Source of the DNA: a virus
Lineage: Duplodnaviria; Caudoviricetes
DNA length: 64,000 bases
Direction: 5' to 3' (one strand)
IMG/VR virus record: IMGVR_UViG_3300025543_000016
Coordinates: 1,785 to 65,784 of that record
Part shown: positions 8,644 through 26,900 of the stretch, piece after piece
Layout: every line of letters begins with the position of its first letter
Numbering within the stretch: the stretch's first letter is position 1
The notes under the pieces: model-generated
Database searches by the model: none
Told to the model about the DNA's origin: nothing
What the model saw: only the letters and a program-made list of their open reading frames with translations
Program-made: the position numbers and the translations under genes

Positions 8644-11600
8644 TTATTTCTTTTTTGCAGCAACTACAGCTTTATAATTTTTTATCTGTTCTTCTAACTC
8701 TTTAGAACTTATAACATATTTAGATTCTATATAATCAGCAACTCTCTGTATATCTTCAGGACCAACTAATTTACCTGCTAAATTACCATAACTTTCATCA
8801 TTAGGATAATAAATTGGTTGTAAAGTTCTATTTTTTTCTTTTTTATATGTAGGTGATTTAGGATCAAATACAGATTCTTTACCTCCTAACATATACATAC
8901 CTTGGTCTTTATATATAAAAAAAGAACCACCACTTGTTACGTTAACTGAATATTGAGAGTTAAATTGAATATCAGTATCTACTTGAGAATAATTAAAGTT
9001 ATTGCTAGAGTATGGATTTAAATCTTGATTTTTATCATCTACAAGAACTGAAATTGTTGAATATTTTGTTAGTTCTGTATTTGAAATTAAATTAGAACCT
9101 GCTTCACCATTAGCAGTCATTGTATATTTTTTTAAAAATTTTGTGTCAAATGTTAAAATATAACCTCCAGCTTTTGAATCAGAATCTTTAGCTCCATATG
9201 TATCAATATATTCTAGTTTAAATAAAGCATCATTTGATGATCCCATTCCTGCATCTAAAGATAATAAAGCTTGTTCAACTAATTTTTTTGCTGTTGCTGA
9301 TTCATCTTCTTCTATGTCAGATTTTTCTTTTGTTGCAGCATCTCCGGGAATATAAGATACACCACCTTGTTTAGTTTGATTTATAAAAGAAACAAGTATT
9401 CTTTCAGCTTCATCATTTAAGTTATTAATGTTTTTAGGTACAATTACACCTGTAGAATATGAGTTACCCATATATGCAGTTGCATCATTCATTTGATTAA
9501 CAGGATTTCCTGCTAAAAGATAATTAGCACCATAAGCTTTAAATGAAGGAGTATCTGATTCTTCAGATCCCATGTTATTATAAAACCTAGTAAAAGTACC
9601 GTTTAATACAGTTTTTTGATTTTCATAAGCTTCTTTAGCATATTCAGCTGCAGCTTCAGCATCAAATACAACTTCTGTTTCTGTAAACTCACCCCAACCT
9701 GTACTTTGATTTTTTTCAAACTTACCATCCCAAAAAGTACCTAAATCTTGCGTCTTACTAATTCTTGCGTTTTCAACAACTAAATTTACAAATTCAGATT
9801 CACTCATAAGTGAACCATCTTCTTTTACAATTTTAGGAACATTGTTTTCAAGATCTTCAAGTACTTTAGGAACACCATCTAAATTTGTAAATTTTAATGC
9901 TTGATCAAAATTTGATTTAGCTCTTTTTTTAAATTCTTCTTCTGCTAAACTAATTCTTGAAACTAAACCATCAATTTCTCTTGTTGAATGTTTAAATCTA
10001 TTTAATTCATTTACATCTAAATTAGGAGCATCTTTTTTAACATCAGCTTCCTTTGATAAAAGTTTTGATAATTTAGTATAAGCTTCAGCAACATATTTTA
10101 TATTTTCAGGTTTATTTAATTCAACTCTAGCATCGCTTATTGAAAGTTTTTTATTTCCGTCTGCTGTTTGAATTTCTATTTCATTAGGTGTACCAGAAGA
10201 GCCTTCTTTTTTTTGATGATAAGATAATAAAAGTTCTATTTGTTTACTTTTCATTTCAAGATTAACATTTTTAAACGCTTCATCTTTTAATGCTATTGCA
10301 TCAATTCTTGTGTTTGGATCACCCTGTTCATCTTTTTCAAATGCTACTTTAGTTTTATCTCCTTGTGCTAAAGCATTTTTAATGTTACTATTAACACCAG
10401 CTGTTATGTTAGCTGCTTTTATTGTTGCATTTCTGTTTTTTTGGTTTTCTGATGCTGTAAATTCATTTTGAATAAATTGTCTTTGTAAATCAAAATTATT
10501 TTTATCAATGTCTCTTTGATAACCATTAATCTCAATATCTCTACTTGCATCTTGCATTGAGTATTGCCTAGCTGCAGCTTTAAGATCATCACCCATATTC
10601 CAATTCATAAGCAATCCGTAAGCTTTATTTAAAAGAGCTTGATTGTTTCCGCTTAAAGGAGCTCTTGCTGAACTCATTAAATCATTTGTATTTTTTAATT
10701 TAGCTTCTTCTGTTTGCTGCTCTAAAAGAACTTGTTGCCATGTATCTTTTTCGGCAGGCGTTAAGTTTTCTTCACCCATTATTGAAACATATTCTTGATG
10801 TCTTTTTAAAACAGCAGATGATTCTTTAACTTTACCTTGTTGTATTAATTCTACAGCTTGAGCTTTAGAAAATATATCACTTATTGTTTCATTGGCCCAA
10901 GCAACGCGACCTTCATTTACTGTAGAAAACTTACCTGCTTTATAACCTTCTTCTGCATAATCTCTAGCTTTAACATAGCTGTTAGTAGCATATGCTTTTT
11001 GAACTCTAGGATCACCAGACAGTCCTTTTACAACCATTTCATAAGCAGCATTTTGAATTAAAGCTCCATTTTTTTGTTTAATAATAAAACGGTTATCTTT
11101 AGTAAAAGTAAAATCACTTGCTTCTAAACCTGAATCTTTTAAATACTTTAAAGCCATATCATAAAGATTAACGCTTGGTACATATTCAGGAATAGGCATT
11201 GTCATAGCTTCATTAGGATCAGCATTTATAAAATCCTGCATTTGATATTGCAAAGCTTTAATATGTGTTTCACTATACTGATCAACAATTTCTTTATTGG
11301 GAGAATCTAATAAACTTTGAGCTCTTTGTAATTCAGATTTATAACGCGATGTTCTATATACATCTTGTTGAATAAGTTTATTTTCAATAAAAGGTTTAAA
11401 TACACCTTGAGCAGCATCAATATTTTGATGTAAAGATAAATCTAAACCTGATATTTGTTGAATTTTTGGTGCTAATCTATTTGCAAAGTCATCTCTTTGC
11501 TGTTTAGTGTCTTCTCTTGATAAGTCGGCATATACAACACTTCCGTACAAATCACTCATTGCTTTATAATTTGTATTATAACGGTCTTCTCTTGTTGACA

Positions 11601-11685
11601 TAACCTTATTTGCAAATTCAAAATTTGGTGTGTAAGGTTTATAGTCTGGACGATATGATTGTATTCCTGGTATATATGTTGCCAT
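8644..11685 (-). CDS. Putative virion cargo/ejection protein (1013 aa)
   Basis: Long ORF with a Tyr/Pro-rich N-terminus (MATYIPGIQSYRPDYKPYTPNF) and a helical body, directly before the giant gene as in crAss-like cargo clusters. Confidence 0.6.
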   Translation of the reverse strand: MATYIPGIQSYRPDYKPYTPNFEFANKVMSTREDRYNTNYKAMSDLYGSVVYADLSREDTKQQRDDFANRLAPKIQQISGLDLSLHQNIDAAQGVFKPFIENKLIQQDVYRTSRYKSELQRAQSLLDSPNKEIVDQYSETHIKALQYQMQDFINADPNEAMTMPIPEYVPSVNLYDMALKYLKDSGLEASDFTFTKDNRFIIKQKNGALIQNAAYEMVVKGLSGDPRVQKAYATNSYVKARDYAEEGYKAGKFSTVNEGRVAWANETISDIFSKAQAVELIQQGKVKESSAVLKRHQEYVSIMGEENLTPAEKDTWQQVLLEQQTEEAKLKNTNDLMSSARAPLSGNNQALLNKAYGLLMNWNMGDDLKAAARQYSMQDASRDIEINGYQRDIDKNNFDLQRQFIQNEFTASENQKNRNATIKAANITAGVNSNIKNALAQGDKTKVAFEKDEQGDPNTRIDAIALKDEAFKNVNLEMKSKQIELLLSYHQKKEGSSGTPNEIEIQTADGNKKLSISDARVELNKPENIKYVAEAYTKLSKLLSKEADVKKDAPNLDVNELNRFKHSTREIDGLVSRISLAEEEFKKRAKSNFDQALKFTNLDGVPKVLEDLENNVPKIVKEDGSLMSESEFVNLVVENARISKTQDLGTFWDGKFEKNQSTGWGEFTETEVVFDAEAAAEYAKEAYENQKTVLNGTFTRFYNNMGSEESDTPSFKAYGANYLLAGNPVNQMNDATAYMGNSYSTGVIVPKNINNLNDEAERILVSFINQTKQGGVSYIPGDAATKEKSDIEEDESATAKKLVEQALLSLDAGMGSSNDALFKLEYIDTYGAKDSDSKAGGYILTFDTKFLKKYTMTANGEAGSNLISNTELTKYSTISVLVDDKNQDLNPYSSNNFNYSQVDTDIQFNSQYSVNVTSGGSFFIYKDQGMYMLGGKESVFDPKSPTYKKEKNRTLQPIYYPNDESYGNLAGKLVGPEDIQRVADYIESKYVISSKELEEQIKNYKAVVAAKKK

Positions 11686-11744: not shown

Positions 11745-13961
11745 TTAGAAACCTGCTTTTCCTGTATAAAAAGGAATAGCATATTTTTTAATTTCTTTTC
11801 CTTTTTTAGCTTTAGATGCTCTTTGGGCCATTACAATTTGAGGATCTATACCGTACATATTACCATAAGCGTTTCCTGGTACTGTATCTTCTTCACCTGT
11901 TTCTAAATATTTAGCTCCTTTAACAGCATCTACTTTATCTCCAAACTGCTGATAAATAGTTTGCATGTTTTTTAATCTTTCATCTTTAATTGAAGATGAT
12001 CTAAGTTTGTTAGGTGTTATAGGTTTAACATTAGCTAAATCAATTGTACCTCCTGTTGTTGGATCAATATCAAATTTATATAATGAATTTAAATTATAAG
12101 CGTTAACAGCATTATCTAAAGCGTTTGCATACCAATCAGCATATTGTTCTCTATCAAAGTTTTTATCATTTTCATAATTTTGCAATGTAGCTTGAGTGTC
12201 ATCATATTGTTTAACTTTTCTTCTATCAGATTCAAAGTTATCTCTTTGTCTAAACTGAGCATTCATTGCTAAACCTTGATTTACAGTGTTTATATTTCTA
12301 CTATTAACCTGAGCAAAAGTGTTTGCGTTTTGTTTAAAAGCATTACCTTGAGCTTGTGCTAATCTAGCATTTAAAGATTGTGGTCCAGCAAACGCACCCA
12401 TTGCTTGAGCTGCAATATTATATTGTTCATTAGTATCGGCTAATGCTCTAGTAGGTTCTTCTAATACATAATCAGTTTTAGTTCTTTCAAGTTCAGGTTG
12501 CCATGGAAAATAAGGAGTTCTATCTCTCATTGCCATAGCAGCGCCTCTTGTTAAATCTTGCTGGTAAAAATTAAAATTAGGATCTTTAGGTTGATTAAAT
12601 TCAGGATCAGCTAAAGAATTTAATTTATCTTTTTGTTTTTCATTTTCTTGCTTTTTAATTTCAGGTTCTGTATAAGAAAAAGGTCTTCTACTAGAAGTAT
12701 ATGTTCCCATGAGTGAATCAAAGTCTGTACCTGTTCCTTTTTTAAAACCGTAATCATCAAGCAATTCTTTTTTTAATTCTTCTAGTTGCTTATCAGAAAT
12801 TTTTTCACCTTTAGAATTTACTTTTTCTTTAATTTTATTTACTTCTTCAGGTATATAATTAGAGTTTATCCAATTTTGAAATTTTTCTACTTCAGGATTT
12901 CTTTGATTTTTATTGTAATTAGGTAAAGATTCTATAAGATTATCTATATCAGGATATATATTTTGCCATGCATTTTTAAATCCTTCTAAATTATCTTTTG
13001 CATTGCCATATAAACCAGAGCCTTGAAATGTTTGTTTGTTACCGTAAGTTGTAGCACCAATACCAGAATCATTAATATTAATACCAAAAGATTTATAAGC
13101 TTTTCCTGTATTTGGATCATAAGCTATATTTTTGTCAGGTTTTTTTTCAATACCTACTTGAGCTTTAGATAGTTCCATACCATAAGAAGCTTCAGGCATT
13201 TGACCTGCTTGTTGCATCATGTTTTGCAACATCATCATTTGTTCTAATTTTTGAGGTGATGTTGAAGCTATTGCTTCCATAGATGCTTTTTGTTTATTAG
13301 CTTCTTCAACTTGTTGCGTAAATTTAATTGGATCTATACCTTTAGAAATTAAATAAGGATGTGAAGTTGCTGGAATACCGTCTGAAAATTGTTTTTTTAA
13401 TTCTTGAGCAAATGCTAATTTAGATAAACCTTTTTGATTTTTTTCTAGCATTAATTCAGCGCTTTTTAACTTTATAGGATCTACATCATCTTCATTCATT
13501 GCACCTATAAACTCATTAAGTTTATATTTTTTAGATATAGCAGCTGGCGTCATACTTTTTTTAGATTCAATACCAAACTCAGCTAATTCATTTTTTTTAA
13601 ATTTCATAGCTTTAGTATCAGAAAATACAAATGATTGTTCAGGTAAATACATAGGTACTCCACCACTTGTATGCCTTGGCCCTTTTATATTATAAAGTCC
13701 AAATTCACCATTATCACTTAACTTAGTTAAAACAGTTTCACCACCTTCAGCTTCTATGTTAGCTATTTCTCTTGGTACAGATGACAATGAATATCTCATA
13801 TCAGCAGCATCTGTATTATTTGATTTATAAGCTTGAGGATATGTAGTTAAAGCATAATTATTTTGATCACCTGTAGAGCCACCTTGTTGCATTTCTTTTA
13901 CAACTTTACCGTTTTGAATTTTAAATCCTTTAGGTAATTTATTTATTTTAATTTTTGCCAT
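11745..13961 (-). CDS. Putative virion cargo protein (738 aa)
   Basis: IEAEGGE...GPRHTSGGVP motif that I recognise from crAss-like internal virion proteins; Gln/Ala-rich helical C-terminal half; MQQGG and LSKAQVG motifs. Confidence 0.65.
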   Translation of the reverse strand: MAKIKINKLPKGFKIQNGKVVKEMQQGGSTGDQNNYALTTYPQAYKSNNTDAADMRYSLSSVPREIANIEAEGGETVLTKLSDNGEFGLYNIKGPRHTSGGVPMYLPEQSFVFSDTKAMKFKKNELAEFGIESKKSMTPAAISKKYKLNEFIGAMNEDDVDPIKLKSAELMLEKNQKGLSKLAFAQELKKQFSDGIPATSHPYLISKGIDPIKFTQQVEEANKQKASMEAIASTSPQKLEQMMMLQNMMQQAGQMPEASYGMELSKAQVGIEKKPDKNIAYDPNTGKAYKSFGININDSGIGATTYGNKQTFQGSGLYGNAKDNLEGFKNAWQNIYPDIDNLIESLPNYNKNQRNPEVEKFQNWINSNYIPEEVNKIKEKVNSKGEKISDKQLEELKKELLDDYGFKKGTGTDFDSLMGTYTSSRRPFSYTEPEIKKQENEKQKDKLNSLADPEFNQPKDPNFNFYQQDLTRGAAMAMRDRTPYFPWQPELERTKTDYVLEEPTRALADTNEQYNIAAQAMGAFAGPQSLNARLAQAQGNAFKQNANTFAQVNSRNINTVNQGLAMNAQFRQRDNFESDRRKVKQYDDTQATLQNYENDKNFDREQYADWYANALDNAVNAYNLNSLYKFDIDPTTGGTIDLANVKPITPNKLRSSSIKDERLKNMQTIYQQFGDKVDAVKGAKYLETGEEDTVPGNAYGNMYGIDPQIVMAQRASKAKKGKEIKKYAIPFYTGKAGF

Positions 13962-13963
13962 AG

Positions 13964-15400
13964 TTATAATATTTCTATATCCGCTCCAGCTGCTATTAAT
14001 GAAGCAAGTGTATCATTGTCTACTTCTATTTCACCACCTTTTTGCATTTCATCTTGATGTAAAAAACCTAATTTAGAAAATCTATTATGATCAGCTTCTA
14101 TATTAGCTTCATAACCTTTTCCTGATACGGGATCAAACATCATGTGTGGTTTAAATTCACCACCCGCTTTATACATTTCTTTACCGTACATTGCTTGAGC
14201 AAGAAAATTAACTAAATTATCTGGTTCAGCAAAACCTGAATTTTTATCAAATGTACCTCTTTTATTTACAGGGTTTTCAATAGCACCATAAACTTTATCT
14301 GCCATTGTAGAATTTCTTAATTTGTTAGTATAATCATTATACTCTTTTTCTTTAAATAATTCATTTACAAAATTAGCACCCATTACAGCTCCTTCCGATA
14401 CTTTACCAAAAGCTTGCATAGTAGGATTATATTTTATAAAATCTTCAGCTTGATCAAATGCATTACTTAAATTTCTTTTTCTTGTAATTTGAGGTTGAAA
14501 TCTAGATTGCATGTTTTGATCAGCAAACATATTTTGTTGTCTTTGCTGTTCTTGATCTAAAGGTGTTGCACCTAAATCAGGTTGTTTTTGTTGTAATTGA
14601 GAATCTTTAACGGCTTGTGTATCAGCAGCATAATTTGTTTGATTTTGATTTTTTAAATAATTACCCATATTAGGTAAAGAATATTGACTTACAAAATCTG
14701 AAATATTAGAATAATCAGGTATACCTATTTGAGCTTTAGGTAAATCACCTCCATATTTAAAATCATTTTCTTTAAAAGATAACTCGTAGCTTCTATTATT
14801 TAATTGTTTTTGTTTGTATCTTTTATTTTTAGCATCCCAATCTCTAAAGGATCCGTCCATTAAACCATCTTTATTTCTATCTTCTTTAGAACCCATTTCT
14901 CCAACAAAATCACTTAGCATCATTGCTGCACCAATTAGATTACCTCTAGCAGGTACTGGTGGCATATATAAAGGCCTTGCTGTTTGATTTGGTATTTGAT
15001 CCAAAAAACCTCTTGATGTAGTATTACCACCATATTGCATCATATTAGCTTCTTCTTGAGCCATATAAGCAGATTCTTCAGGACTCATGTTTTCTTGATA
15101 ATTTTGCTCTTGAGGTTTCTGCATTTGAGCTTCTTGTTGTTGATTTAATGCTATTTCAATTTTTTGAAATAAATCAACAACGGCGTCTGGGCTATATCCT
15201 AAATAAGATAAAGCAGAACTTATTGTTTCTTTTTGAACGCCTTGCTGGCTAAGTCCAACAATTACTTCTTCTAATGAAACACCGCTTTCCATAAGCTTAC
15301 CCATTTCTTCAAGGATTGGTTCAATAGAAGGATCTATACCTCTACTTGAAGATGATGCTTGTTCATTTACACTTATATTGTTTATGTTTTCTTGCTCCAT
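13964..15400 (-). CDS. Putative virion cargo protein (478 aa), Gln/Met-rich, with repeated xxxGG motifs
   Basis: ORF track; MQYGG, FKYGGDLPKAQIG, YKAGG and MQKGG motifs; located in the cargo cluster. Confidence 0.55.
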   Translation of the reverse strand: MEQENINNISVNEQASSSSRGIDPSIEPILEEMGKLMESGVSLEEVIVGLSQQGVQKETISSALSYLGYSPDAVVDLFQKIEIALNQQQEAQMQKPQEQNYQENMSPEESAYMAQEEANMMQYGGNTTSRGFLDQIPNQTARPLYMPPVPARGNLIGAAMMLSDFVGEMGSKEDRNKDGLMDGSFRDWDAKNKRYKQKQLNNRSYELSFKENDFKYGGDLPKAQIGIPDYSNISDFVSQYSLPNMGNYLKNQNQTNYAADTQAVKDSQLQQKQPDLGATPLDQEQQRQQNMFADQNMQSRFQPQITRKRNLSNAFDQAEDFIKYNPTMQAFGKVSEGAVMGANFVNELFKEKEYNDYTNKLRNSTMADKVYGAIENPVNKRGTFDKNSGFAEPDNLVNFLAQAMYGKEMYKAGGEFKPHMMFDPVSGKGYEANIEADHNRFSKLGFLHQDEMQKGGEIEVDNDTLASLIAAGADIEIL

Positions 15401-15452
15401 GATATATTATTAATATACAAATAAATTAACAGATTTACTAATTTTTTAAAGT

Positions 15453-18400
15453 TTAAGCTTGGTTTATAATGTTACTCATAATATAATTAGGAGGTGTTGT
15501 TCCTGAAATTTTTGCTTGTTTATAATAAATTCTATTTAATTTATCATATACTTTTTTTGCATTAAGTTCCATATCACTACCATCATAAACACCATCAATA
15601 TAATTATTATAAATAAATAAATTATTTTCTAATTCACCTCCATTTTTAAAATTTTGTTCTTGATTTGTAAAAGATTTTTTTCTTTTATCTTTTAAAACTT
15701 TTAAAATTCTTTCATATTGTTCTTTAGTAATATCCGGCTTAGAAAAAACTTTTTTATCATTAGGATTTTTTTTCATATACTCATCTCTAACCATTTGATG
15801 AGTTATAATACTTTCTAAATCTAAATTATGTTTTAAAGCAATACCATCATAATATTCTATAAAAGAATCTATTTGTTTGTTTGTTAAAGGTTTTCTATTT
15901 GTATTACCTTGAAACTCTACACCAACACTAAAATCATTTACATTATCATTTTCTCCCCAAGCACTTTTACCTGCATGAAAAGTAACTTGTTCTGGAGAAG
16001 CATAAACTGTTCTTTTACCATCCTCTTCAATAACTACATGAGCTGAAGCATTGTTAGGTTGCATAAATTGATTTCTAACTTGTTTTTCATTTAAAGCCTC
16101 GTTTTCATAAGCAGTATGGTGTAATACAATATTTTTTATTTTATTTTTTAGAGCATGTCCTTTTTTATAACTTTCATCTTTTTCTGTACGTACATTAGGC
16201 ATTCCTTCTACGTACTCTTCTTCAAAATTATAAACTGGTTCATTGTAACCTTGAATGTATAATCCATTGCCTCCACCACCAGCATTTTCTTTATCATAAG
16301 ATTTTAATCTCTCTTTTGTTAATTTTTTATCTTTATAAGAAAGACCTCTAGAATATGTTCCATTATCTAAACTGTAAACAGTTAAATATTCTGTATTTCC
16401 TTTTATTTTATTAAATTCATTTTTTATGTGTTTAAAGCTTCCAGATAAAAGATGTGTTTGTCCTGTTTCAGGGTTTTGTACTAATAATCTACCTCCTTGA
16501 ACATTTCCATAAAAATCTTCATTATTACCTCTTATTAAAAAGTTTAAAGAACCGTTTACAATTTCTCCATTATCTTTTTTAATTGTAGCTACCGGTTGAT
16601 TGTATCCTTTATTTTTTACAGACGGTTTATATTTACTTTTACCGTTAATTTCTGGAAAATCAACTACATTGTTTCTTACTGTATTACTAAATTTCCATCC
16701 TTTTTTATTTCTAAAATCAACAGCTTGACCAGCATGAATATTCCCTTCAGGGTCTAAAGCTATAACTGTTGTTTTATCTGGAAATTGTTTTTCCACAAAA
16801 GGATTAAAAGTTGTTATTTCTAAACCGTCTGTTTCTATTTCATTAAAATCTCCTCTATTTCTAATACCAAATTTAATAGTATTAGTAGGAAGTCTTTGTT
16901 GTTTATATACTCTTCCATCTGTTTTAGGAGCGTCTAAAACAGCTGTTACAGTTCCTCTATTAGGATTGTTATAATATTCTTTTATATTTTTAGGAATAAG
17001 ATTTTCTTTGACTTCTACTTTTACATCATCAGTATTACCTGTTTTAATAGACCATTTTCTTTTAATACCATTAGATATTACATCTAAAATATCTCCAGCA
17101 TTGTCATTATCAGAAAAAACATTAGTAATATCATCCCATAAACTATCTTCCGGTTTTTGTTTTTTAATTCTTTCAGCTTCTTTTTGATTTTCTATTTTTA
17201 AATCAGCATCTTTATAAATCTTTTTTAAATCAATATTTTCTATTGGTTTTAAATTAGAACTTAATTGTATATTGTTAATAGCATTATTAGCATTTTCTGG
17301 AATAATTTTTTGTTCTAAATTTTTCTTTAAATCAATATTTTTATTATTATCAAAATAACCATCATACCAATTACTTTGTTTTTCTTCTATTGGTTTTACA
17401 TTTTCAACAGGATTATATCTAATATCAAAAGAATTTTTATAGTTATAACTTCCTTTTTTAATATCTTCAAAAACTTGCTTTTCATAATCAGAATATCCTT
17501 TTAAAGCGTATTTATTATTTAAATGATTATAAATATTTGTTTTTGCTTTATCATTATCGCTAATATCTGCCCAATTATCATTACCCTTTTTAGAATAATA
17601 AAATTTATCTCCTTGAATTAAATAATTAAAATTAGGACTATAATCATTTACAACAATATTTTTATGATGTTCTGTAGGTATTTCTTTTAATTTTAAAGGC
17701 TTATCATATTTAAAAGGAATTTTTAATTTTTCTCCAGCATAAATTAAATCAGGATTTTTAATGTTATTAGTTTTTACTAATTGATCTACACTAATACCTG
17801 TTCTTTGACTTATTTTACTTAAACTATCTCCTTTTTGTATTAAATAATTTTCATCTTTTTTTAATTCACCTCCTTGTTGATAATATTCTCTAGCTTTTTT
17901 TAAATATTCTTCTGGGGTTTTATTAGTTTGATTTGCATTTTTACCATATAAATTAGGAAAAACTTTTTCTAAAGGTTTACCATCTCTTACATGTTCTCCT
18001 AAATAATTTCTTGTTCCTTGTCTTCCTAAAAAATTAGAAAGAACAGCAATATCTTCTTTTGAATATTCAAAATTTTTAAATTGAGGAGAATAATCTTTAT
18101 ACAAATCATTTGCATCTTTTTGTAAAGAAGTAGTTTTACTAGATTTTAATCCATTATAAAATCTATCTTTAAAAAATTGTTTTTGTGCAATAGTATCTTT
18201 AGCAAATTCTTTTCTGGTTCCTTTATAATCATTTTTTATTTCACTGAATCTTTGTCCAAATAATCCTGTAGCTGTAGATTCTGGGTTCCACATTAATTTA
18301 CCATTTAAGCTTTCTACATTTCTAATTGCGTTAGATACTCCATCAAAGTCTACAGATTTATATGGGTTGTTTCCAATAGTACCAAAAGAATAATGTTGCT

Positions 18401-20948
18401 CTTGTTCTTTTGTCATAGGAAAAATATATTCTACAGTAGTTTCATTTTGTGCTTTAGGAATATTTCCTCCAAATTGTTTTTGATTTTGTGATTGAGCTGC
18501 CGCACCTGCACCCAATATTGTTGGAACAACTGCTTTATAAATATTAGGATTAGTCATATCAAACATTCCGTTATTACCCCATTTAGATTTTAAATAATTA
18601 CCTGGTTTTTGATGATTTATCAAAACATCTCCAATACCATTATCATTTATGTTTTTAAGTTTAACATAATCAATATTATTATCTTCTATATATTTAGCAA
18701 CATCTACAGTTTTCACTCCTTGTCCAATATCTTTTTTAAGATCTTTTTTCATCTTCATTAATATTGGATTTTTCATATTATCTAACTGTACTTCTAACTC
18801 CTTTTCAAGATTATTTAGTTTACTCAAAGCCCTTTTAGAAAACTCACTATTATCGCCCCTAAGCTTATTTCTTGATACTTTTTTCCTAAAGTAATCTACT
18901 TGGTTTTGTAAGTTTTCTAGAGTTATCTCGTCTGCATTATCTACAAACCCTAAAGACTCCCATGCCTCTCCTTGTCCAGTAGTTTCAGCAGAGTTTTTAG
19001 ATATTTTACCAATAAGTTCATGAATACCTTCTACTTCATCAGTTTGACTAAGAGCTGGGCTATTATCAATACTGTTTACAGTAAATGGTTTTTTAGTTTT
19101 GGCATATTTATAGTAGTCATCTGCATAATTTTCAGCTAACTCTTTATTTGCTGTAAATACAGCTCTAAAATCTGTATTAGGGTCTATTAAATATCTATTC
19201 TGCGAATGTGCTCCTCGGTATGTATCATAGTAACCATTAGGAAAAGCTTTTTTAAAATTAACACTCTGTTGCTGTATAAAAAACTCAGGTGGTCCTTTAT
19301 AGTCAGATCCATCAGGATTTTTCATCCAAGTACCATTTGCTTTAGCTTGTTGTTCAATAGCATTATACTCTTGCAGTAAAGATTTATTTTCTGGTATTTC
19401 TTTATTCCACTTACCCCAATTTAGTTCTGATTTAAATTTAGGTACTTTAGGTATATTAATTAAATTAGGATTAAGTTTGTTTTTGCCTTTTAAATTTTTG
19501 GTTAACTTTTTTGCACTATCTCCTAGCATACCAATTGGAGCTACACCAGCAGCACCCTCTAAAACTTGCATCCCATCTCTATTGTAAGCACCTTGAGCAA
19601 CATTTTTAGCATCGTTAACATACTGAACAGGATTAATTATATCTACAGCATAATCTAAAGCATTTCTAGGTCCTCTTGAAAAATTATCAGGTAAGTTTTT
19701 ATTTCTTGCCATATAACCCATAGCAGTCATAGGGTTTAATGCTACTTCTAAAGTTTTATCTAACCGACCTTGTTTAGGGTCTGAGGCTCTTATAGAACCT
19801 TTTGGCTTAGATTGCATATTCATTAATTGAATATAATCTAATACAGCTTTTTCATCTTCTTTAGAAACTGTTTCTTCAGGGCATGGTGGTTGTCCAGGCC
19901 CTCCACAATTAGTACTAACAGTACCTCCTAATTCTTTTTTATTTGTTTTTTCAAAATTTCTAAGTGTGCTAATTAGTACAGGAATATCTTGTTTATCAAC
20001 ATTACCTCTAGCAAATTCTCTTAGTAAAGGTTCTACTATTCTGTGTGTATCAAATTCTAATTGTCCTGGTGTATCATAGTTTTCTTGTTGCCCTTCTTTG
20101 GACATAAAAGGTTTTTCTTTATAAGATTTTAAAAAGTCAGTGACAGTACTACTACCTTCAAAATTTTCTTTATAGGCATGTGCCATTTCAGGCAATACAC
20201 TTCCTAAAGACCTTATATTTATATTATTGGTAAGAGGATTGTAATAACCTGTTGGACCATCTGCGTTTACATAAACTTTAGGATTACCACTCATACCACT
20301 AAGTTGTAGCAGTCTTCTGAAAGAAATTTCTTTTATGCTATCAAGTTTATTTTTTTCATAAGGTTTTCCCTCAGAAGATATCTTATGATCATTGTGATAG
20401 CCAGCTAATTTTTTTGAGTACTCTTTTAAGTGTGATAATGTTTTTTTATCTAACTTATTTATATTTTCATATCCCTCAAGATTTTTAATATAATCCCAAA
20501 CAGCTTTCTCATCTTCTTTAGATACAGTTTGTCCACCAACTTGTGCTTTAGGTAATGCGCTACCACCACACTTATGGCATGTAGATACATCATTACCACC
20601 ATCTGCTGCTTTCCAAGACCAACCACAGCTATTACACTTCATTGTTTTAGTTAAAAGACCTCCTCCATATTTAGCCATTGGCACTTCAAACACTTGATCA
20701 CCGGGAAACTGATAATTATTACCTGGTGTCATTATTTGACTATTACCTAAATTATCTGTCCCCATAACAGGAAAATCTACATCTTCCATTGTAATATTTC
20801 CAGATGGTATAATATTATATGGATTGTTTACATCAGGGCTATTTCTTTTATATCCATCAATACTAAACATACCAGATACATGTGTAATATATTCATTTGG
20901 CCCACCCGGTAAACCTAAACTTTGTTTATAACTAAATTTTTTTTTCAT
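15453..20948 (-). CDS. Polyvalent multi-domain protein (1831 aa): Zn ribbon, zincin-like, ADP-ribosyltransferase-like, lysozyme/SLT-like, LysM, N-acetylmuramoyl-L-alanine amidase
   Basis: CNSC..CHKC; PEMAHAY..EFDTH; QQQSVNFKKAF..YRG..LKSKWGNNGMFDMTNPNIY (ART-PolyVal-like); VESLNG..NPESTATGLFG; YLIQKGDSLSKIS..NNIKNPDLIYAGEKLKIP (LysM); IVLHHTA..SAHVVI..FHAG..SVGVEFQG..ITH (Amidase_2). Confidence 0.8.
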   Translation of the reverse strand: MKKKFSYKQSLGLPGGPNEYITHVSGMFSIDGYKRNSPDVNNPYNIIPSGNITMEDVDFPVMGTDNLGNSQIMTPGNNYQFPGDQVFEVPMAKYGGGLLTKTMKCNSCGWSWKAADGGNDVSTCHKCGGSALPKAQVGGQTVSKEDEKAVWDYIKNLEGYENINKLDKKTLSHLKEYSKKLAGYHNDHKISSEGKPYEKNKLDSIKEISFRRLLQLSGMSGNPKVYVNADGPTGYYNPLTNNINIRSLGSVLPEMAHAYKENFEGSSTVTDFLKSYKEKPFMSKEGQQENYDTPGQLEFDTHRIVEPLLREFARGNVDKQDIPVLISTLRNFEKTNKKELGGTVSTNCGGPGQPPCPEETVSKEDEKAVLDYIQLMNMQSKPKGSIRASDPKQGRLDKTLEVALNPMTAMGYMARNKNLPDNFSRGPRNALDYAVDIINPVQYVNDAKNVAQGAYNRDGMQVLEGAAGVAPIGMLGDSAKKLTKNLKGKNKLNPNLINIPKVPKFKSELNWGKWNKEIPENKSLLQEYNAIEQQAKANGTWMKNPDGSDYKGPPEFFIQQQSVNFKKAFPNGYYDTYRGAHSQNRYLIDPNTDFRAVFTANKELAENYADDYYKYAKTKKPFTVNSIDNSPALSQTDEVEGIHELIGKISKNSAETTGQGEAWESLGFVDNADEITLENLQNQVDYFRKKVSRNKLRGDNSEFSKRALSKLNNLEKELEVQLDNMKNPILMKMKKDLKKDIGQGVKTVDVAKYIEDNNIDYVKLKNINDNGIGDVLINHQKPGNYLKSKWGNNGMFDMTNPNIYKAVVPTILGAGAAAQSQNQKQFGGNIPKAQNETTVEYIFPMTKEQEQHYSFGTIGNNPYKSVDFDGVSNAIRNVESLNGKLMWNPESTATGLFGQRFSEIKNDYKGTRKEFAKDTIAQKQFFKDRFYNGLKSSKTTSLQKDANDLYKDYSPQFKNFEYSKEDIAVLSNFLGRQGTRNYLGEHVRDGKPLEKVFPNLYGKNANQTNKTPEEYLKKAREYYQQGGELKKDENYLIQKGDSLSKISQRTGISVDQLVKTNNIKNPDLIYAGEKLKIPFKYDKPLKLKEIPTEHHKNIVVNDYSPNFNYLIQGDKFYYSKKGNDNWADISDNDKAKTNIYNHLNNKYALKGYSDYEKQVFEDIKKGSYNYKNSFDIRYNPVENVKPIEEKQSNWYDGYFDNNKNIDLKKNLEQKIIPENANNAINNIQLSSNLKPIENIDLKKIYKDADLKIENQKEAERIKKQKPEDSLWDDITNVFSDNDNAGDILDVISNGIKRKWSIKTGNTDDVKVEVKENLIPKNIKEYYNNPNRGTVTAVLDAPKTDGRVYKQQRLPTNTIKFGIRNRGDFNEIETDGLEITTFNPFVEKQFPDKTTVIALDPEGNIHAGQAVDFRNKKGWKFSNTVRNNVVDFPEINGKSKYKPSVKNKGYNQPVATIKKDNGEIVNGSLNFLIRGNNEDFYGNVQGGRLLVQNPETGQTHLLSGSFKHIKNEFNKIKGNTEYLTVYSLDNGTYSRGLSYKDKKLTKERLKSYDKENAGGGGNGLYIQGYNEPVYNFEEEYVEGMPNVRTEKDESYKKGHALKNKIKNIVLHHTAYENEALNEKQVRNQFMQPNNASAHVVIEEDGKRTVYASPEQVTFHAGKSAWGENDNVNDFSVGVEFQGNTNRKPLTNKQIDSFIEYYDGIALKHNLDLESIITHQMVRDEYMKKNPNDKKVFSKPDITKEQYERILKVLKDKRKKSFTNQEQNFKNGGELENNLFIYNNYIDGVYDGSDMELNAKKVYDKLNRIYYKQAKISGTTPPNYIMSNIINQA
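19830..20528 (-). repeat. Duplicated 42-nt / 14-aa segment TVSKEDEKAV(W/L)DYI
   Basis: Copies at 20487-20528 and 19830-19871 within the 1831-aa ORF. Confidence 0.9.
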
Positions 20949-23900
20949 TATCTAAAGGACATGTTTAATTTTGTATTTGCTAATTTAAGTAGCATTTTTC
21001 TATTTCCAGAGACATTTCTTCTTAAAATAACTTTGTTGTAATAATGTCTAAACTTTTTATGTTGTAAAGATTCTTTTTTATAGTTTAAATTAAAAGCATT
21101 TAAATCTCTAATGTATCCATTAAGTTGTGTAATAAAAATACTTTGTTCAAAATTAGTAAATTCACCTCTATCTCTAGTTGTATCCCAAAATTGATTAAAT
21201 CTATATTTTTGTTCTTCTTTAGAATATAATATTCTAATGTCATTAGTTCCAATTATAGGATATTGCAACATACCATAAGGATCTTCTTTAGGATTAAGTT
21301 CTAATTTTAATAAACCTGATACTTGTTCTGAATTATATATAATAGATTCATCAAAGTTAAAATCTAAATCATGCCATCTATCATCAGCACAGCCATTATA
21401 AAGATCACCTTTATAAACATAAGATTCTAATTGATATTCAATACTTCTTAAAGTTGTAACATTTTGACCTGTATTTTCAATTAACTCAACTTCCCAAGGA
21501 TAATCAATACCATAAAAATTAGCAAATGAATCACATCTAACATTATGTCTCCATATACGACTTTCTTCATTATTTGCTGGTGTAGATAATAAACCAAAAT
21601 ATGAACACAATAATGGATTTGGATTTACATAAGATAAATCACCAACTAAATATAAATCATCACATTCACCTGACTCTGTAGTTACAGAACCAGAAAATTG
21701 AGCCGGTGGACAATTACATTCTATCTTTCTACAAATAGGAGGAAAATTAGAATCATAAGAACCTGTTTCTAAAGTATAATTACCATTAACATCTGAATAT
21801 ATTAATTCATATCCATTAGGGCATGATAAACAAGCTTGTGCAGATACAGCATCTGCTACAGCAGTAATTGTATTTGGTTGATTTGCAGCTATACCAAATT
21901 CATAAGCTGAATTATTACAGCTTATATTTGATAATACTCCTTGGTCATATGGAACAGGGTTTGTTGCTCCTGCAAATAAAGCAATTATATATTGATAGCT
22001 TATTGCACTACCACCTAACAAAGATGATTGATAAGGACAACCTACATTTGTTGAAGGAGCTGTTGAAGTATCTGTTACAAATAATATATATTGTCTAAAG
22101 TTATTGTTACTTGTTCTATCACCTAACTGAGAAATTGTTTTATTATTTAATATTGTTTGAGCATGAATTAAAGCTGGTTCAATACTTGTTCCACCACCTA
22201 ACCATGTAGATGTAAACCAAATATCTACTTCCGATGGTGTAATTGTATTACTCATACTAAAACCTAAAGGATTCATTGATAGTTGGGATGAACCCCACAT
22301 TGTAAAACCAACTTGAATTTTACCTGCTGCCATTCCAGAAGCAATAGATGTGTTATTTAAAACACCTTGAACAAGAGCTCTTTCTGCTGCACCAATAGCA
22401 CCAGCAGCACCTCCAGTACTACCTGAAACATCAACAGCAAAAATAATATCTATAAGACAGTTTGAATTATTATCAGTGCTTATTTCATCAATTAAAACAG
22501 ATGCTTTAGTTGTTTCTTGATATACTTTTTCACATTGATTTGTAAGAGAATTAAAGTTATAACCATCAGGGCAATAAAATGTATCAGATATAGTTGTTTG
22601 AGTTGTAAGAAAATGATTAATACTAGGTAATACTAACTCAGGAAACCAATCATGAAATGATATCCAAGCTTTAGATTTAGGATCGTACGATACAGTCCAA
22701 GATGCGTTATTAAAATAAAGAGGATTTCCAATTTTTAAAGGTATAGGTCTAGAATTTGGTTTTGATCTTATTACAAATTCATCATTTTCAAAAGATATAT
22801 TATTTAAAAATTCTTCTTTTACAGAATAATCTTTTTTCATAAAATAAACTACATCATCATTTGCATCATATATAGTTTGACATCCAATACCTATTACAGG
22901 GTTATCAGCTAATTTACTAAATTCTAAATCACGATATTGTCTTATAAGAGTTGATGGTAAATATTTGTTAAACCAAGCTTTCATACCGGAATTAGCAATA
23001 TTTTCTAATTGACCTGTGTAATGAAATATTTTACCTTGAGCTTGAGATATATAAAACACACCCATTGGTGTACTTACAACAGAACGGGCGTTTTCAGATG
23101 AACCGTATTCATTTGAAAGATCTGAATTTACAATATTTTGAAATGGTTGACTAAATAAACCACCATCCCCAATAGTAAGCTTAGTGCCTAAATCTGTTTG
23201 TAGTTGATCAATTCCTTGAAACATTTGAGGAGATTGATATGGAAAAAATATAATTGCTCCGTTTTTATTTATAGGTTTGATTACATTAACTCTATTTTTA
23301 AAATCTTTATAATTGTTAGGTAAAAATACTCTCCAAAAATCTTTCTTAGCTTCTCTTTGTGCTTGTAAAGAATAAATTAATCTTTTAGGATAATACTGGT
23401 AACAGTTTTCTGCAATTAAAGGATCATAATCTCTTTCTTGGACATTACCAAAAGAACTAACTTGAGTTATCATTTTATCAATGCTTAATGACAAATCATA
23501 TTTATAAAAATTACCTTCTTTAATTATGTCTGCATGAAATAAATCATCAACGTTAGTGTACTGATAATTATCATAATGTCTACCTTTTGTTTCATCATCC
23601 CAATCTCTTTGTGCTAAATTATATTCAGATTCAACAAAGAAATCTTGTACGCCATTAACGTGAGTATACATATAGGCATATCTCATTGCAAAAGCAGGAT
23701 TAGGGTCACTGCTGTTAAACACGGCTCCCATACCTGATGCGCAACTATTAGAACCTCTATCTAAATAAAATAAATCATTTGGTAAAGCGTTTTTAGTATT
23801 TGCAAAACCCAAAGTTACAATTTCATCTGCTAATTGTGTTGTATCATATTTACGTGTATCCATCCAAAATCTTGGATAAGGTATATTTATTCTTTGTAAA

Positions 23901-26900
23901 TAATCATAAGAATATTGATTAGGTTGACCATTTAAAAAGTCAGCAAAAATTGGCATTATTGTTTTTTCAGTGTATCTATTAATATAAACATCACCAGCAA
24001 ATATAGGTTTAGATTTAAATTTTTCTTGTGGTATTTTAATATCAACTAACTCTAAACAACCTCTCATTTGAATTTGTTTAACGCCATCTAATTGACCGTA
24101 TTGATTTTTAAAATTATATTTTAATGCCCCATATATTGCAGAAATAGATCTTGATTGTTCTTGTTCCGGATTTTTTATATAAGTATTTCCATAATCATTA
24201 ACCGTATCACCACCAATTGTATATCTTGATTTATCAACAACTAAAGGATTTTCTAATTCATTTTCAGTAGCAACTAAAACAGTCATTGGTCTAAATAAAT
24301 TATTTATTTTATAACCCTCAAATTCTTGAAATGAACTTCCTATGTAATTAGAATTTAAATTTTTAGTTCTAAATGTTAAATTACTATTTCTAAGTGTAAA
24401 ATTATTATAAAAACCATGTGAATTGTGTTTAAAAGCAAAATCTTCTTCACTAACAAGATTATAAAATAAATCTATTATTTCTTGAGCGCCTGTTGCAATA
24501 TTTGTTTTTGCAATAACTAGTCCTAAAAAAGTACTTATAACTTTAGGTAATGCTCCAGAAGGATGTGTAACGTTATAAGTTTCATAATACTTGCCGCTAT
24601 TAATACCGGGTACTCCACTTGCAAGTAAGTTTGCTTCATTATTTATTCTAAGATTAAGTTGATTAGCTAATTTACCACCTGAGTATAATGAAGCAAAAGA
24701 AGCTAAATCATCTAATAAAAGTTCAAAAATACCATATGTAATCAAAGAGGCTTCTATTGCAGCTGCAGCTGCAGTTACAGAAGATGCTAATTTCAGACCT
24801 GGAATTGAAAAAGATGTACCTCCAACAGCTATGTTTGGATCTGTATGTTGAGATAATCCTTCAAGACCATAAGATTGATTACCTTTAACTCTACTAATAG
24901 CATATCCAACACCAAATAATCCAGCAATTAAAGCACCTCCGTTTCTTAATAATTTATTTTGAGGATGATTTTCTGATTTAATAAAATGACCTATAGCACT
25001 ACCGTCAAGATCTCCGTAAACTCTTGTTTCATAAGCATTTAAAAAAGGTCTTCTAAACATTAACTCTGGAGAATGAAATGTAAAATAATCTTTTTTATAC
25101 CCCGTTAATGGTTTAAATGAAACTTTAGATTGAGTAAATGTATCACAACCATCTGTTCTATGATCACTGTTTTGTTTACCGTCATGAAAATAAACGTCAG
25201 GTCTTAAATCATTATAAGGATAGTTAGGATATAAACCTTTACTATTACCTAAAGTTTGGCCACCTTCAGGTATATTATATTCACGCATATTTTTAAATAT
25301 ACCTTTTGCAAGAATAGATTTATGACCTTCTCTTGAACCTCTTAATATTTCATAACCAACAATGTTAGTTATAATGTTTCCATTATTATCTAAAGGTGGA
25401 GATATATTTTCAAATTCAACACCTAATACTCTTATTGTTGTTCCATTTGTAGAAGATATTTGTAATTGAGATCCTATTTCTTCAGTAGGCATTTTATGAT
25501 GTCTAATATTTTTACCGCATAAATTGTCCCATATATCAGGTCTAGTTGCTGGATATTTTTCAGTAGACTCCCAATAAGCCATATCACCCTTAGCTATTAT
25601 AATACCGTTATCTTCTGTTGGTATAGATAAATTACTATTTGTAACAGTTGCTGTATTATAAATTTCAAAATTCATTTCATCATTAGCTAAAGAATTTAAT
25701 CCGCCACTAATAGCAATTTCATTTATTACTTGACCAAATTGATTTAATCCATTGGTTTTAGGTGCTCTACCTGGAATATGATATGAACTAGATCTTTCAC
25801 CTGTATTATAAATCCATCTAATAAAAAAAGCATACTGCTCATCTCTCATAAATCCTGTTTTATTACCTCCTTTATAATAATAAGAAGCAGGATACTCGGC
25901 AACAACCCATTTAGCTTTAATTTGATTTGCTAATGGTTGATAATTAAAATCAAATTGTTCTACAGGACCTTGTCTTATTAACCAATCATTTACAACATAC
26001 ATTGTATCTGATTTTTCATAAGCAGGTGATCTTAAAGGAATTATTTCTAATGGTATACTAATTAATGATTGATCTATATAATCAATTTCAATATCCATTT
26101 GTTCTGTGCTATATAATCCTATTTTTTTAGCTACAGTATTTTGTTGATTATTAGAAAGAATTACAAGTTCATAATAATCAAATTGCTTATCTAAATTTGA
26201 TATTGTAATACGTAAAGAACCTGAAGTTCCTGAATGATCAAATAAAGATTGAACATTTGATACACCAATGTAATCTGTAACTTTTTGATTATTTACAGTA
26301 TAAGCAACAAAAACTTGATATGATCCGTTTCTTAATTGACCACCACTTTCACCTTTATTTAATTTAATACACGGCGTATCAACCAATGGGGCCAATCTTA
26401 TTTTTTCACAATCTAATTCATTTGTATTTTCATAAATAAGACAATCAGCTCCAGGTTTTGAAGTTATTATTTGTTTCCATGGTATATCATTTAAATTAAG
26501 AGTTCTTGATGGATTATTACCATCATCCCAATATGTTTGCCAAGAGCAATCAAAATTTTCTTTTGCTGCTCCAACAATTAAATGTTTTTTATTAAAGTTT
26601 AAACAAGGATCATTAACAAGAGTTGTATACTCACATTTACTATCATCAAATAATCCTATCTCAGAGTTTATATTATCTGTAGAATATAAGACCCATTGAT
26701 CAGAATAAGTATGTATAGCACCTATAATTGTATAAGGCACTTTAGCACATTCTAAATTTGAAGGTTCATTTCCTATAAGACCAGTATCACCATCTACAGA
26801 ATTATTTGCAGCATTACGAGCATGAGACCAAGCTTCTTTTGGTTGATAAGAAGATGACATATCTTTCATCATACCTTTAATAAAAATTCTAGAGTCTATA

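Follow-up and report, generated by a model that had tools for sequence, protein, structure and literature searches.

The stretch of DNA analysed here, referred to as the window, comprises 64,000 nucleotides (nt) of the IMG/VR virus record IMGVR_UViG_3300025543_000016 (positions 1,785 to 65,784), and this study concerns a short Gly-Gly-containing peptide motif that recurs in three adjacent proteins encoded at positions 11745 to 20948. The viral contig that contains the window has 65,784 bp and a CheckV completeness estimate of 57%, and judging from its sequence belongs to a crAss-like (Crassvirales-like) phage. Pfam matches were obtained for Crass_capsid (E = 1.2e-31), the muzzle protein crAss_MUZ (E = 6e-23) and the tail ring proteins CrAss_Ring_1 (E = 6.7e-8) and CrAss_Ring_2 (E = 5.4e-16), and portal and large terminase of the contig were identified by PHROGs families. 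Crass-type capsid, muzzle and tail rings are encoded in a single block, the arrangement that marks a Crassvirales virion module. On the minus strand the gene order is terminase, portal, acidic scaffold-like protein, capsid, rings, fibres and muzzle, followed by five genes that we termed A, B, C, D and G.

The cargo block starts with the motif-free muzzle gene (20948..26941), which like the five genes after it lies on the minus strand. A (15453..20948), the first gene past the muzzle, encodes p1831, which contains a LysM domain (amino acids (aa) 1035-1078), an Amidase_2 domain (aa 1602-1726) and six motif copies. The second and third cargo-type proteins are p478 (B; 13964..15400) with four motif sites and p738 (C; 11745..13961) with two clear sites and a degenerate KAKKGKE before its conserved C-terminal peptide. 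The next cargo-like gene D (8644..11685), encoding the cargo-protein-2 look-alike p1013, and the giant open reading frame (ORF) G (1..8610), cut by the contig end, are motif-free and served as controls. Since A combines LysM and Amidase_2 and a distinct endolysin-type gene is present elsewhere (52426-53343), A is, also in view of its gene position, most likely a virion-borne, ejected multi-domain cell-wall enzyme. All three motif-bearing proteins are most likely cargo carried in the particle and injected into the host; their delivery with the virion is suggested by their position past the muzzle, and the distant homologues gp040 and gp041 of Cellulophaga phage phi4:1 are recorded as detected by virion tandem mass spectrometry (MS/MS).

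For G, 3,464 aa are present in the window contig, with HEAFH at window positions ~2281-2295. The G proteins of two complete relatives (117.8 and 117.3 kb) measure 4,988 and 4,374 aa; in these, HEAFH lies near residue 2,110-2,130 and DFDID near 3,600-3,780. From the HEAFH motif and the DFDID polymerase motif of these relatives, G is classified as a putative fused zincin and virion RNA polymerase protein. Such fusions have been described for crAss-like phages, as a virion-packaged protein class, in the accessible part of a preprint (Drobysheva et al.). The neighbouring zincin invoked in the earlier note thus has its HEAFH signature, but the Pfam scan of the window part of G gave no model match, HEAFH region included.

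All 13 motif copies named in the earlier note were located in p738, p478 and p1831, at the positions given there. The largest protein carries AKYGG (aa 92-96; 20661-20675), GGSALPKAQVGG (aa 128-139; 20532-20567), the weak copy KELGG (aa 338-342; 19923-19937), KQFGGNIPKAQ (aa 824-834; 18447-18479), which has no trailing Gly and falls below a 10-bit matrix threshold, YQQGG (aa 1023-1027; 17868-17882) and FKNGG (aa 1767-1771; 15636-15650). MQYGG (aa 121-125; 15026-15040), the full motif FKYGGDLPKAQIG (aa 214-226; 14723-14761), YKAGG (aa 410-414; 14159-14173) and MQKGG (aa 452-456; 14033-14047) are found in p478. MQQGG (aa 24-28; 13878-13892), ASYGMELSKAQVG (aa 258-270; 13152-13190) and KAKKG (aa 717-721; 11799-11813), a degenerate K-A-x-x-G-x-E preceding the conserved C-terminal peptide PFYTGKxG, are found in p738.

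Compared across these and related proteins, the core of the motif reads as an aromatic residue or Met, then K or Q (A in gut crassviruses), then x-G-G and usually an acidic or small polar residue, and in the marine clade it appears often extended to K-Y-G-G-x-L-P-K-A-Q-x-G-x-E. The consensus of 70 distinct instances in relatives was K-Y-G-G-x-L-P-K-A-Q-x-G-x-(G/E)-E, with 2.7-4.0 bits of information per position in L-P-K-A-Q and 1.1-2.6 bits in the flanking glycines. xxxGG and KAQxG represent one motif in two forms, as they interchange at the orthologous site after a module of the type PHMM...H: at the MQKGG position, where the window has DEMQKGGE, relatives have PKAQxGxE variants such as DAPKAQTGNE, ELPKAQTGMD, DELKKAQEGTE or DEMQGGKAQMGFE. 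The common core of both forms can be written as hydrophobic-[Q/K]-x-G-x-E.

Since p738, p478 and p1831 are rich in Gly and Lys, the motif could have been a chance product of low sequence complexity. This was assessed by shuffling the three proteins (3,047 aa in total) 20,000 times with their composition preserved. Plain GG was somewhat over expectation (23 observed vs 16.0 expected), a count reached by 916 of the shuffles, which implies that glycine richness alone does not explain the motif counts. However, none of the 20,000 shuffles reached the four observed matches to [LIVM][PS]KAQ (0.022 expected) or the seven to [FYMWLIV][KQ].GG[EDNST] (0.245 expected). Together with the conservation of the motif, position by position, in alignments with relatives at 41-46% identity and its uneven distribution over gene classes described below, these counts refute a chance origin, to which we assign practically no probability. 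The three proteins are otherwise unrelated, as the earlier note had stated: the best high-scoring segment pair (HSP) in an all-against-all blastp had E = 0.019, and three weak HSPs were the motif itself. Synonymous codons vary among the copies, indicating selection on the peptide and conservation at the protein level. A DNA-level repeat or recombination junction was considered and rejected on account of this codon variation and because the conserved stretch spans only ~15 nt.

Within the window contig (43 ORFs, 19,650 aa) all three matches to a position matrix and all seven GG-type matches fell inside p738, p478 and p1831, and capsid, portal and scaffold-like proteins had no copy in the same scan. 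To follow the motif among relatives, an alignment-based scan of IMG/VR was used, yielding 80 syntenic loci, or 81 with locus L001, in which ORFs were classed by their position around the p738 homologue and strict KAQ regular expression matches and non-redundant matrix matches of at least 15 bits were counted per gene class. Class A (88,486 residues) contained 43 strict and 61 matrix matches, class B (65,349 residues) 33 and 60, and class C (72,940 residues) 11 and 14, the matrix having been trained on A, B and C instances and being informative for the control classes alone. Among these controls the muzzle class (69,194 residues) had 1 strict and 2 matrix matches, both of the latter being split A genes placed there by the synteny rule, and classes D (85,198 residues) and G (162,469 residues) had none of either kind. 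In sum, 87 strict matches in A, B and C (226,775 aa) stand against a single one in muzzle, D and G (316,861 aa), bearing out the enrichment in cargo genes of relatives that the earlier note had proposed to look for. In the two complete relatives, 5 of 5 and 3 of 3 matrix matches lay within A, B and C, and the GG-type expression gave, in each, four matches inside these proteins and three outside; the full-length G copies of 4,988 and 4,374 aa had no GG-type match.

This restriction bears on the proposal, made in the earlier note, that the motif is a reusable virion address tag, whose copies would bind scaffold, capsid interior, portal or tail lumen for cargo loading. Several copies could give avidity, and the candidate receptors are very conserved while the cargo diverges: structural proteins of the window and two relatives are 79-95% identical (capsid 93-95%, portal 81%, rings 79%), and A, B and C are alignable between them only in patches. 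The motif is thus conserved within fast-changing proteins. However, a tag for all cargo should also occur in the other packaged-type proteins D and G, where strict matches are absent from 85,198 and 162,469 aa, and the number of KAQ-form copies varies from 0 to 4 per protein among relatives. A general capsid address tag is therefore unlikely and not supported as it was put forward, and we regard loading by the motif itself as very improbable.

A profile of 41-residue motif windows was searched against 5.8 billion proteins, with 7,998 candidates scored, and retrieved 301 proteins at E <= 10. The best 120 of these 301 matches were 216-1,972 aa long and encoded on contigs of up to 118.6 kb, and many among these 120 carry LysM, SLT, YkuD, PG_binding_1, SET or PF18760 domains; they are proteins of the same kind as the window cargo proteins. 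The A proteins of relatives combine LysM with YkuD, or LysM with SLT and SET; SET, PF18760, YkuD and SLT modules were seen there in varying combinations (e.g. L018 1799-6883). From these domain architectures, phages appear to exchange payload modules while keeping the junction motif. In some relatives two ORFs take the place of a single A or B gene (L033 3-6642; L069 3101-9995; L063 7339-9995). In L033 the second A ORF starts seven residues ahead of a motif copy (MNWKEFTMKYGGGL...) and its end resembles the tail of B, and in L063 the two B ORFs overlap in a frameshift-like manner.

In AlphaFold2 models the motif was located between the confidently folded parts. The p478 model (65-sequence alignment) had a mean predicted local distance difference test (pLDDT) score of 71, and its segments with pLDDT below 50 include residues 115-143, 213-229 and 404-414, which hold the motif sites MQYGG, FKYGGDLPKAQIG and YKAGG, that is, three of four; the fourth, MQKGG, is located in a block with a mean pLDDT of 57 between two helices. 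In the model of p738 residues 1-290 (54 sequences), the segments 25-56 and 255-276, both with pLDDT below 50, hold both motif sites, MQQGG and, past the conserved N-terminal module, ASYGMELSKAQVG. In these two models, all six copies thus lie in low-confidence linkers.

Furthermore, the motif coincides with borders of modules. In the B alignment (65 sequences) 6 of 7 insertion hot spots were no more than 10 residues away from a p478 motif site; hot spots follow residues 115 and 126 around MQYGG, and the largest, after residue 210, has a mean length of 220 aa. An extra module of ~200 aa in the L001 B protein is flanked by two motif copies. For p1831, block edges were taken from the starts and ends of blastp HSPs against 68 A proteins, which clustered at aa 90-102 (38 ends), 136-142 (14 ends), 1025-1034 (6 ends) and 1763-1770 (35 starts). 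The claim that the copies in p1831 fall at domain boundaries holds for four of the six, which lie at such clusters or at a Pfam domain edge: AKYGG at the end of the conserved N-terminal domain, GGSALPKAQVGG right after a CxxC...CHKC segment, YQQGG eight residues ahead of LysM and FKNGG at the start of a conserved C-terminal module of ~60 aa. It does not hold for aa 338-342 and 824-834, which have no clear homology-block edge. Directly ahead of LysM, the motif was found in three different A proteins, from the window and two relatives. The segment before GGSALPKAQVGG is zinc-ribbon-like with four Cys (CNSC...CHKC; 20568-20639, aa ~104-127), and 'CHKCGG..[LMV].KAQ' was found again in the A proteins of many relatives.

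Conservation at borders in homologues, another expectation of the earlier note, was observed at both chain ends. In p738 the GG of MQQGG is invariant in 54 of 54 aligned homologues. All 64 A proteins with a canonical C-terminus have GG in their last 85 residues, and in 56 of them it lies 53-70 residues from the C-terminus, just ahead of the conserved terminal module. Past the last GG of B, the peptide ...LIAAGADIEIL (p478 C-terminus, 13964-14029) is near-invariant (90% or more in 65 sequences). Short terminal pieces are the best-conserved parts of the fast-evolving A, B and C proteins; that of C is ...PFYTGKMG (p738 C-terminus, 11745-11795) and that of A a module of ~58 aa ending in ...PNYIMT... 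(15453-15635). These pieces may be real docking or assembly elements.

Between the last two motif copies of p478 lies a mini-module of ~40 residues, F-x-PHMM[FY]DP-x-[ST]GKGY-x-A-x(3)-ADH-x-R-x(3)-G[FY]-x-H (window 14036-14158, p478 aa ~415-455; also in L002 5401-6789), downstream of YKAGG, for which the conserved His residues suggest metal binding. When p478 was compared to cultured phages, the sole match was a mini-module of ~120 aa in Methylophilales myophages. A hypothetical protein of the Methylophilales myophage Melnitz (Kyanoviridae), which matched p478 at 29.8% identity (E = 9e-6), has the ~40-residue mini-module but not the motif.

The affiliation of the cargo-type proteins with known crassvirus families was examined with several tools. 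For p738 no Pfam match was obtained at E <= 0.01, and the model PF25725 (crAss_CARG1) gave none at E <= 10 in six-frame searches of five genomes. Nevertheless, an hhalign comparison of the p738 family (54 sequences) with cargo protein 1 (6 sequences) returned a weak match (probability 61.8%, E = 7.7e-5, 87 columns), and in an embedding comparison (look-alike score 0.93) all ten best named matches were of the cargo protein 1 family. Based on embedding and weak profile likeness, but no match to the Pfam hidden Markov model (HMM), p738 is described here as cargo-1-like, a candidate homologue not assigned to crAss_CARG1. A conserved segment of p738, EAEGGETVLT...GPRHxxGGVPMxLPEQSFxFSD (13617-13793, aa ~57-115; related loci L095 28650-31337 and L096 25888-27684), resembles SEIKGETHEKGGVAIDLKEGEKVLSD of phi4:1 gp040, AEVEGASHEQGGVNMNVPEGTKIYSK of Flavobacterium phage FpV4 gp30 and ...NEGGSHEENP...DYVFSDR of PhiCrAss001 gp45, and is probably a divergent portal-binding cargo-1 domain; the hhalign alignment covers only its part from FVFSD on. 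Foldseek with the p738 1-290 model found no PDB match at E <= 0.001, PDB sequence searches with the p738-family profile and p1013 gave chance-level matches only, and tblastn of p738 against cultured phages gave none. The cargo-protein-2 likeness of p1013 comes from the embedding score (0.91) alone, as p1013 had no Pfam match to PF25712 (crAss_CARGO2) and this model none at E <= 10 in the five genomes.

Outside the marine clade, phi4:1 encodes a distant muzzle homologue followed by gp041 and gp040, the two proteins whose detection by virion MS/MS is noted in its GenBank record, and these contain FLKEGGE, NFQAGG, YQNGGQPKMLKSGGE, TFQIGG and KFQSGGS. In cargo protein 1 (gp45) of PhiCrAss001 the pattern aromatic-[A/K/Q]-x-GG is present at 208-210, 260-265, 331-333, 426-428 and 559-563, and neither a KAQ form nor the LPKAQxG extension was found. 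A relaxed core expression, written after the gp45 and phi4:1 sequences were seen, matched gp45 six times (0.49 expected) and phi4:1 gp040 four times (0.27 expected), counts reached by 0 of 2000 shuffles in either case, and gave no match in gp46, muzzle, gp041 and gp039. Six further gut crassvirus cargo-1 proteins had 1-7 copies, with 0, 7, 23, 49, 53 and 225 of 1000 shuffles reaching the respective count, and five gut cargo-2 proteins had none under the relaxed expression. The junction motif therefore appears to span several crAss-like lineages, namely the marine clade, phi4:1 and seven gut Steigviridae. As a database search with the gp45 domain listed 120 matches that were all 97-100% identical to PhiCrAss001, GenBank phage records were used for diversity. 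Pfam crAss_CARG1 corresponds to gp45 424-555 (E = 2.3e-66), and the GG just past this domain is retained by all 6 Steigviridae cargo-1 proteins that were aligned, and by IAS virus as well.

For gp45 structural information is available (PDB 7QOG, 7QOI, 7QOJ, 7QOL and 8CKB). As far as described in the accessible text of Bayfield et al. (2023), gp45 has two segments ordered in cryo-EM, 214-245 at the tail-barrel rings R1/R2 and 425-552 at the portal, it is treated as one chain spanning rings and portal, and short cargo segments dock on rings and muzzle. When copy positions are set against these segments, four of the five gp45 copies lie no more than 18 residues from a segment end. Docking of short cargo segments on rings and muzzle would agree with an address tag, but the gp45 docking segments lie beside the copies, only F426-G427-G428 being at an ordered-segment edge. 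This copy is located inside the contiguously modelled 425-552 segment, which argues against a cut there.

This last point bears on a different explanation, already raised in the earlier note, in which the motif is a proteolytic processing code and the cargo proteins are polyproteins that a phage, an unrecognised or a host protease cleaves at hydrophobic-[KQ]-x-GG or beside it. Cleavage would release individual enzymes and strip short N- and C-terminal assembly peptides. The Gly-Gly pair is predicted to lie in exposed linkers, GG-ended N-terminal peptides exist in all three classes ('GLPGG' near residue 15 of A, 'KQQGG' near residue 12 of B in many relatives and 'MQQGG' at residue 27 of C), and the conserved short C-terminal peptides of A, B and C are preceded by the motif. 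The Q-x-G-G pattern presumably resembles sites of ubiquitin-like-protein proteases and of the adenovirus protease. As for precedents, embedded zincin-like peptidases have been proposed to process large packaged multidomain phage proteins in the accessible text of Iyer et al. (2017, PMC5512222), which names no junction or cleavage motif and in which the words 'glycine' and 'linker' are absent, and fused crAss RNA-polymerase polyproteins are called 'likely cleaved' in the part available of the preprint by Drobysheva et al.

However, the search for a matching protease in five genomes, four of them 99% or more complete, was negative. No match was found to Pfam C48 (PF02902; the adenain and poxvirus I7 families lay outside this search), to C39 (PF03412; the control was positive in 7 of 14 reference genomes), to the S78 prohead protease (PF04586; the T4 gp21 family lay outside this search) or to Prok-JAB in any of the five, and no protease family was detected on window proteins scanned with Pfam or PHROGs. 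HExxH was not found in the motif-bearing window proteins, HEAFH being confined to G. The zincin was considered as cutter of a general polyprotein code, an idea weakened by the giant zincin and polymerase proteins, which would be expected to be cleaved and have no copies. Capsid, portal and scaffold-like proteins do not carry the motif either. In PhiCrAss001, virion gel bands at 270 and >300 kDa, as given in the accessible part of Shkoporov (2018), imply that its giant proteins are not chopped, and bands of 85 and 100 kDa from the same source are, by size alone, near the 90.8 kDa of gp45. Cleavage, proteolysis or a protease is not mentioned in the accessible text of Bayfield et al. (2023), nor is the motif. 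Altogether, we regard cleavage as rather unlikely, though as the main alternative and a serious one. If it were true, an unrecognised divergent viral or hijacked host protease would free small effectors in a variable assortment, gut crassvirus cargo protein 1 would also be cut at aromatic/Met-[K/Q/A]-x-GG, and the gp45 pieces at tail and portal would be distinct polypeptides, not one portal-threaded chain.

Alternatively, the motif could act after ejection as a host-directed linear motif, binding a periplasmic or envelope component or peptidoglycan, and would then position the cell-wall enzymes or aid a trans-envelope channel. This would agree with its limitation to three proteins expected in the envelope, of which A carries LysM and amidase and in relatives SLT, YkuD and PG_binding_1, with its absence from proteins expected to reach the cytoplasm, and with its high information over ~15 residues, which is docking-peptide-like. 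However, a host is hinted at only by distant cultured relatives on Cellulophaga and Flavobacterium; the core is common to gut Bacteroides phages despite very different hosts; and the motif follows module borders, which is not required of a pure host-binding peptide. We consider a host-directed role improbable.

The motif can be described as a conserved short linear element at junctions in the cargo or ejection proteins whose genes directly follow the muzzle gene of crAss-like phages. Our preferred, still tentative explanation is that it serves as an uncleaved joint between separately docking modules. It would lie in disordered linkers at the borders of modules that evolve and insert independently, setting apart the N-terminal domain, the zinc-ribbon-like segment, LysM and enzyme domains, the cargo-protein-1-like module and the short conserved terminal peptides. 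The chain would stay uncut, and the Gly-Gly joint would let each module fold and dock at its own site, as modelled on PhiCrAss001 cargo protein 1 on portal and tail-barrel rings, and let the modules unfold and thread singly through the tail at ejection. The strongly conserved L-P-K-A-Q part in the marine clade suggests, in addition, recognition of the joint by a conserved partner. The uncleaved joint is favoured because none of the four protease families was found in the five genomes and no protease family at all in the Pfam and PHROGs scans, because the usual substrates of maturation proteases (capsid, scaffold-like, portal and G) lack the motif, and because gp45 copy 426-428 is within a contiguously modelled segment. 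Co-folding of ring 1, ring 2 and muzzle 1-300 with the 41-residue motif alignment gave a score of 0.00 in a run without controls, to which no weight is given either way.

Several points weigh against the uncleaved joint. L-P-K-A-Q is more conserved than a passive hinge needs, which implies that a specific reader must exist, and the short GG-ended N-terminal and GG-preceded C-terminal peptides fit a system of propeptide removal. KAQ-type copies are missing altogether from the A, B and C proteins of some relatives, e.g. L061, and no single site is indispensable. The loci are mutually related and the copy counts are not independent events, and low AlphaFold2 confidence is no proof of disorder in the virion. 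Beyond the clade, the relaxed expression was fitted to sequences already seen, the excess was modest in five of seven gut cargo-1 proteins (7-225 of 1000 shuffles reaching the count), and FpV4 had no copy in the proteins past its muzzle homologue.

In line with the earlier note, which knew of no functional description of this motif, none was found in the literature searched, which was mostly outside subscription journals. The closest likeness is to PhiCrAss001 gp45, which like A of the window is the first gene past the muzzle, has core copies near the ends of its ordered segments and, in the accessible text describing its structure, is for the most part disordered, its short segments being docked separately on portal and tail-barrel rings. 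In contrast to PhiCrAss001 with one gene (842 aa), the window has three (3,047 aa), and unlike these, gp45 has no LPKAQxG extension and is matched by the crAss_CARG1 HMM, which the window proteins are not. Polyvalent proteins are large multidomain proteins delivered with the DNA that carry cell-wall enzymes, zincin-like peptidases and other effectors, according to the part consulted of Iyer et al. (2017, PMC5512222). Similarly, p1831 and its relatives combine LysM, Amidase_2, SLT, YkuD, PG_binding_1, SET and PF18760, with two unrelated effector domains (LysM and Amidase_2) in p1831 itself, as is characteristic of polyvalent proteins, but unlike that account the window system has a defined junction motif, which is missing from the zincin-bearing giant protein.

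Further parallels exist. In T4-type capsid targeting sequences and the prohead-protease processing of internal proteins, short terminal peptides of packaged proteins end in a fixed short motif, whereas the window motif is mostly internal, repeated and absent from capsid, portal and scaffold-like proteins, and no S78 protease was found in the five genomes. In Gly-Gly processing sites, such as C39 double-glycine leaders and clan CE substrates, Gly-Gly follows a hydrophobic and a polar residue in an exposed segment. The window motif shares the hydrophobic-polar-GG pattern, but C39, C48 and Prok-JAB were absent from all five genomes. The ejection proteins of T7 (gp14/15/16) and N4 are packaged and ejected ahead of the DNA, some with cell-wall enzymes, and to our knowledge no common junction motif has been described among them. 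T7 gp15- and gp14-like clusters were among the weaker embedding look-alikes, with no homology shown.

Two further genes of the window were recorded. The 431-aa protein encoded at 43245-44540, between portal and capsid genes, is very acidic and helix-prone with a basic C-terminus and looks like a scaffolding protein; it had no Pfam or PHROGs family match. The tail-module gene at 29125-30348 matched PHROG 704, 'DNA repair exonuclease' (E = 7.8e-41), an unusual annotation at this place, and had no Pfam match.

Crassviruses are among the most abundant phages and carry megadaltons of protein cargo, whose organisation, loading and ejection are open questions according to the accessible text of Bayfield et al. 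(2023). The motif parses fast-evolving, mostly unannotatable cargo proteins into modules and gives concrete sites for mutation or virion mass spectrometry, by which a single threaded chain of cargo protein 1 could be told from several fragments. If it is only a hinge, it would be a useful annotation rule of modest biological novelty. If a partner or a protease recognises it, the motif would give access to a modular system of protein delivery in which phages swap payload modules of amidase, LysM, transglycosylase, L,D-transpeptidase, SET and ADP-ribosyltransferase type.

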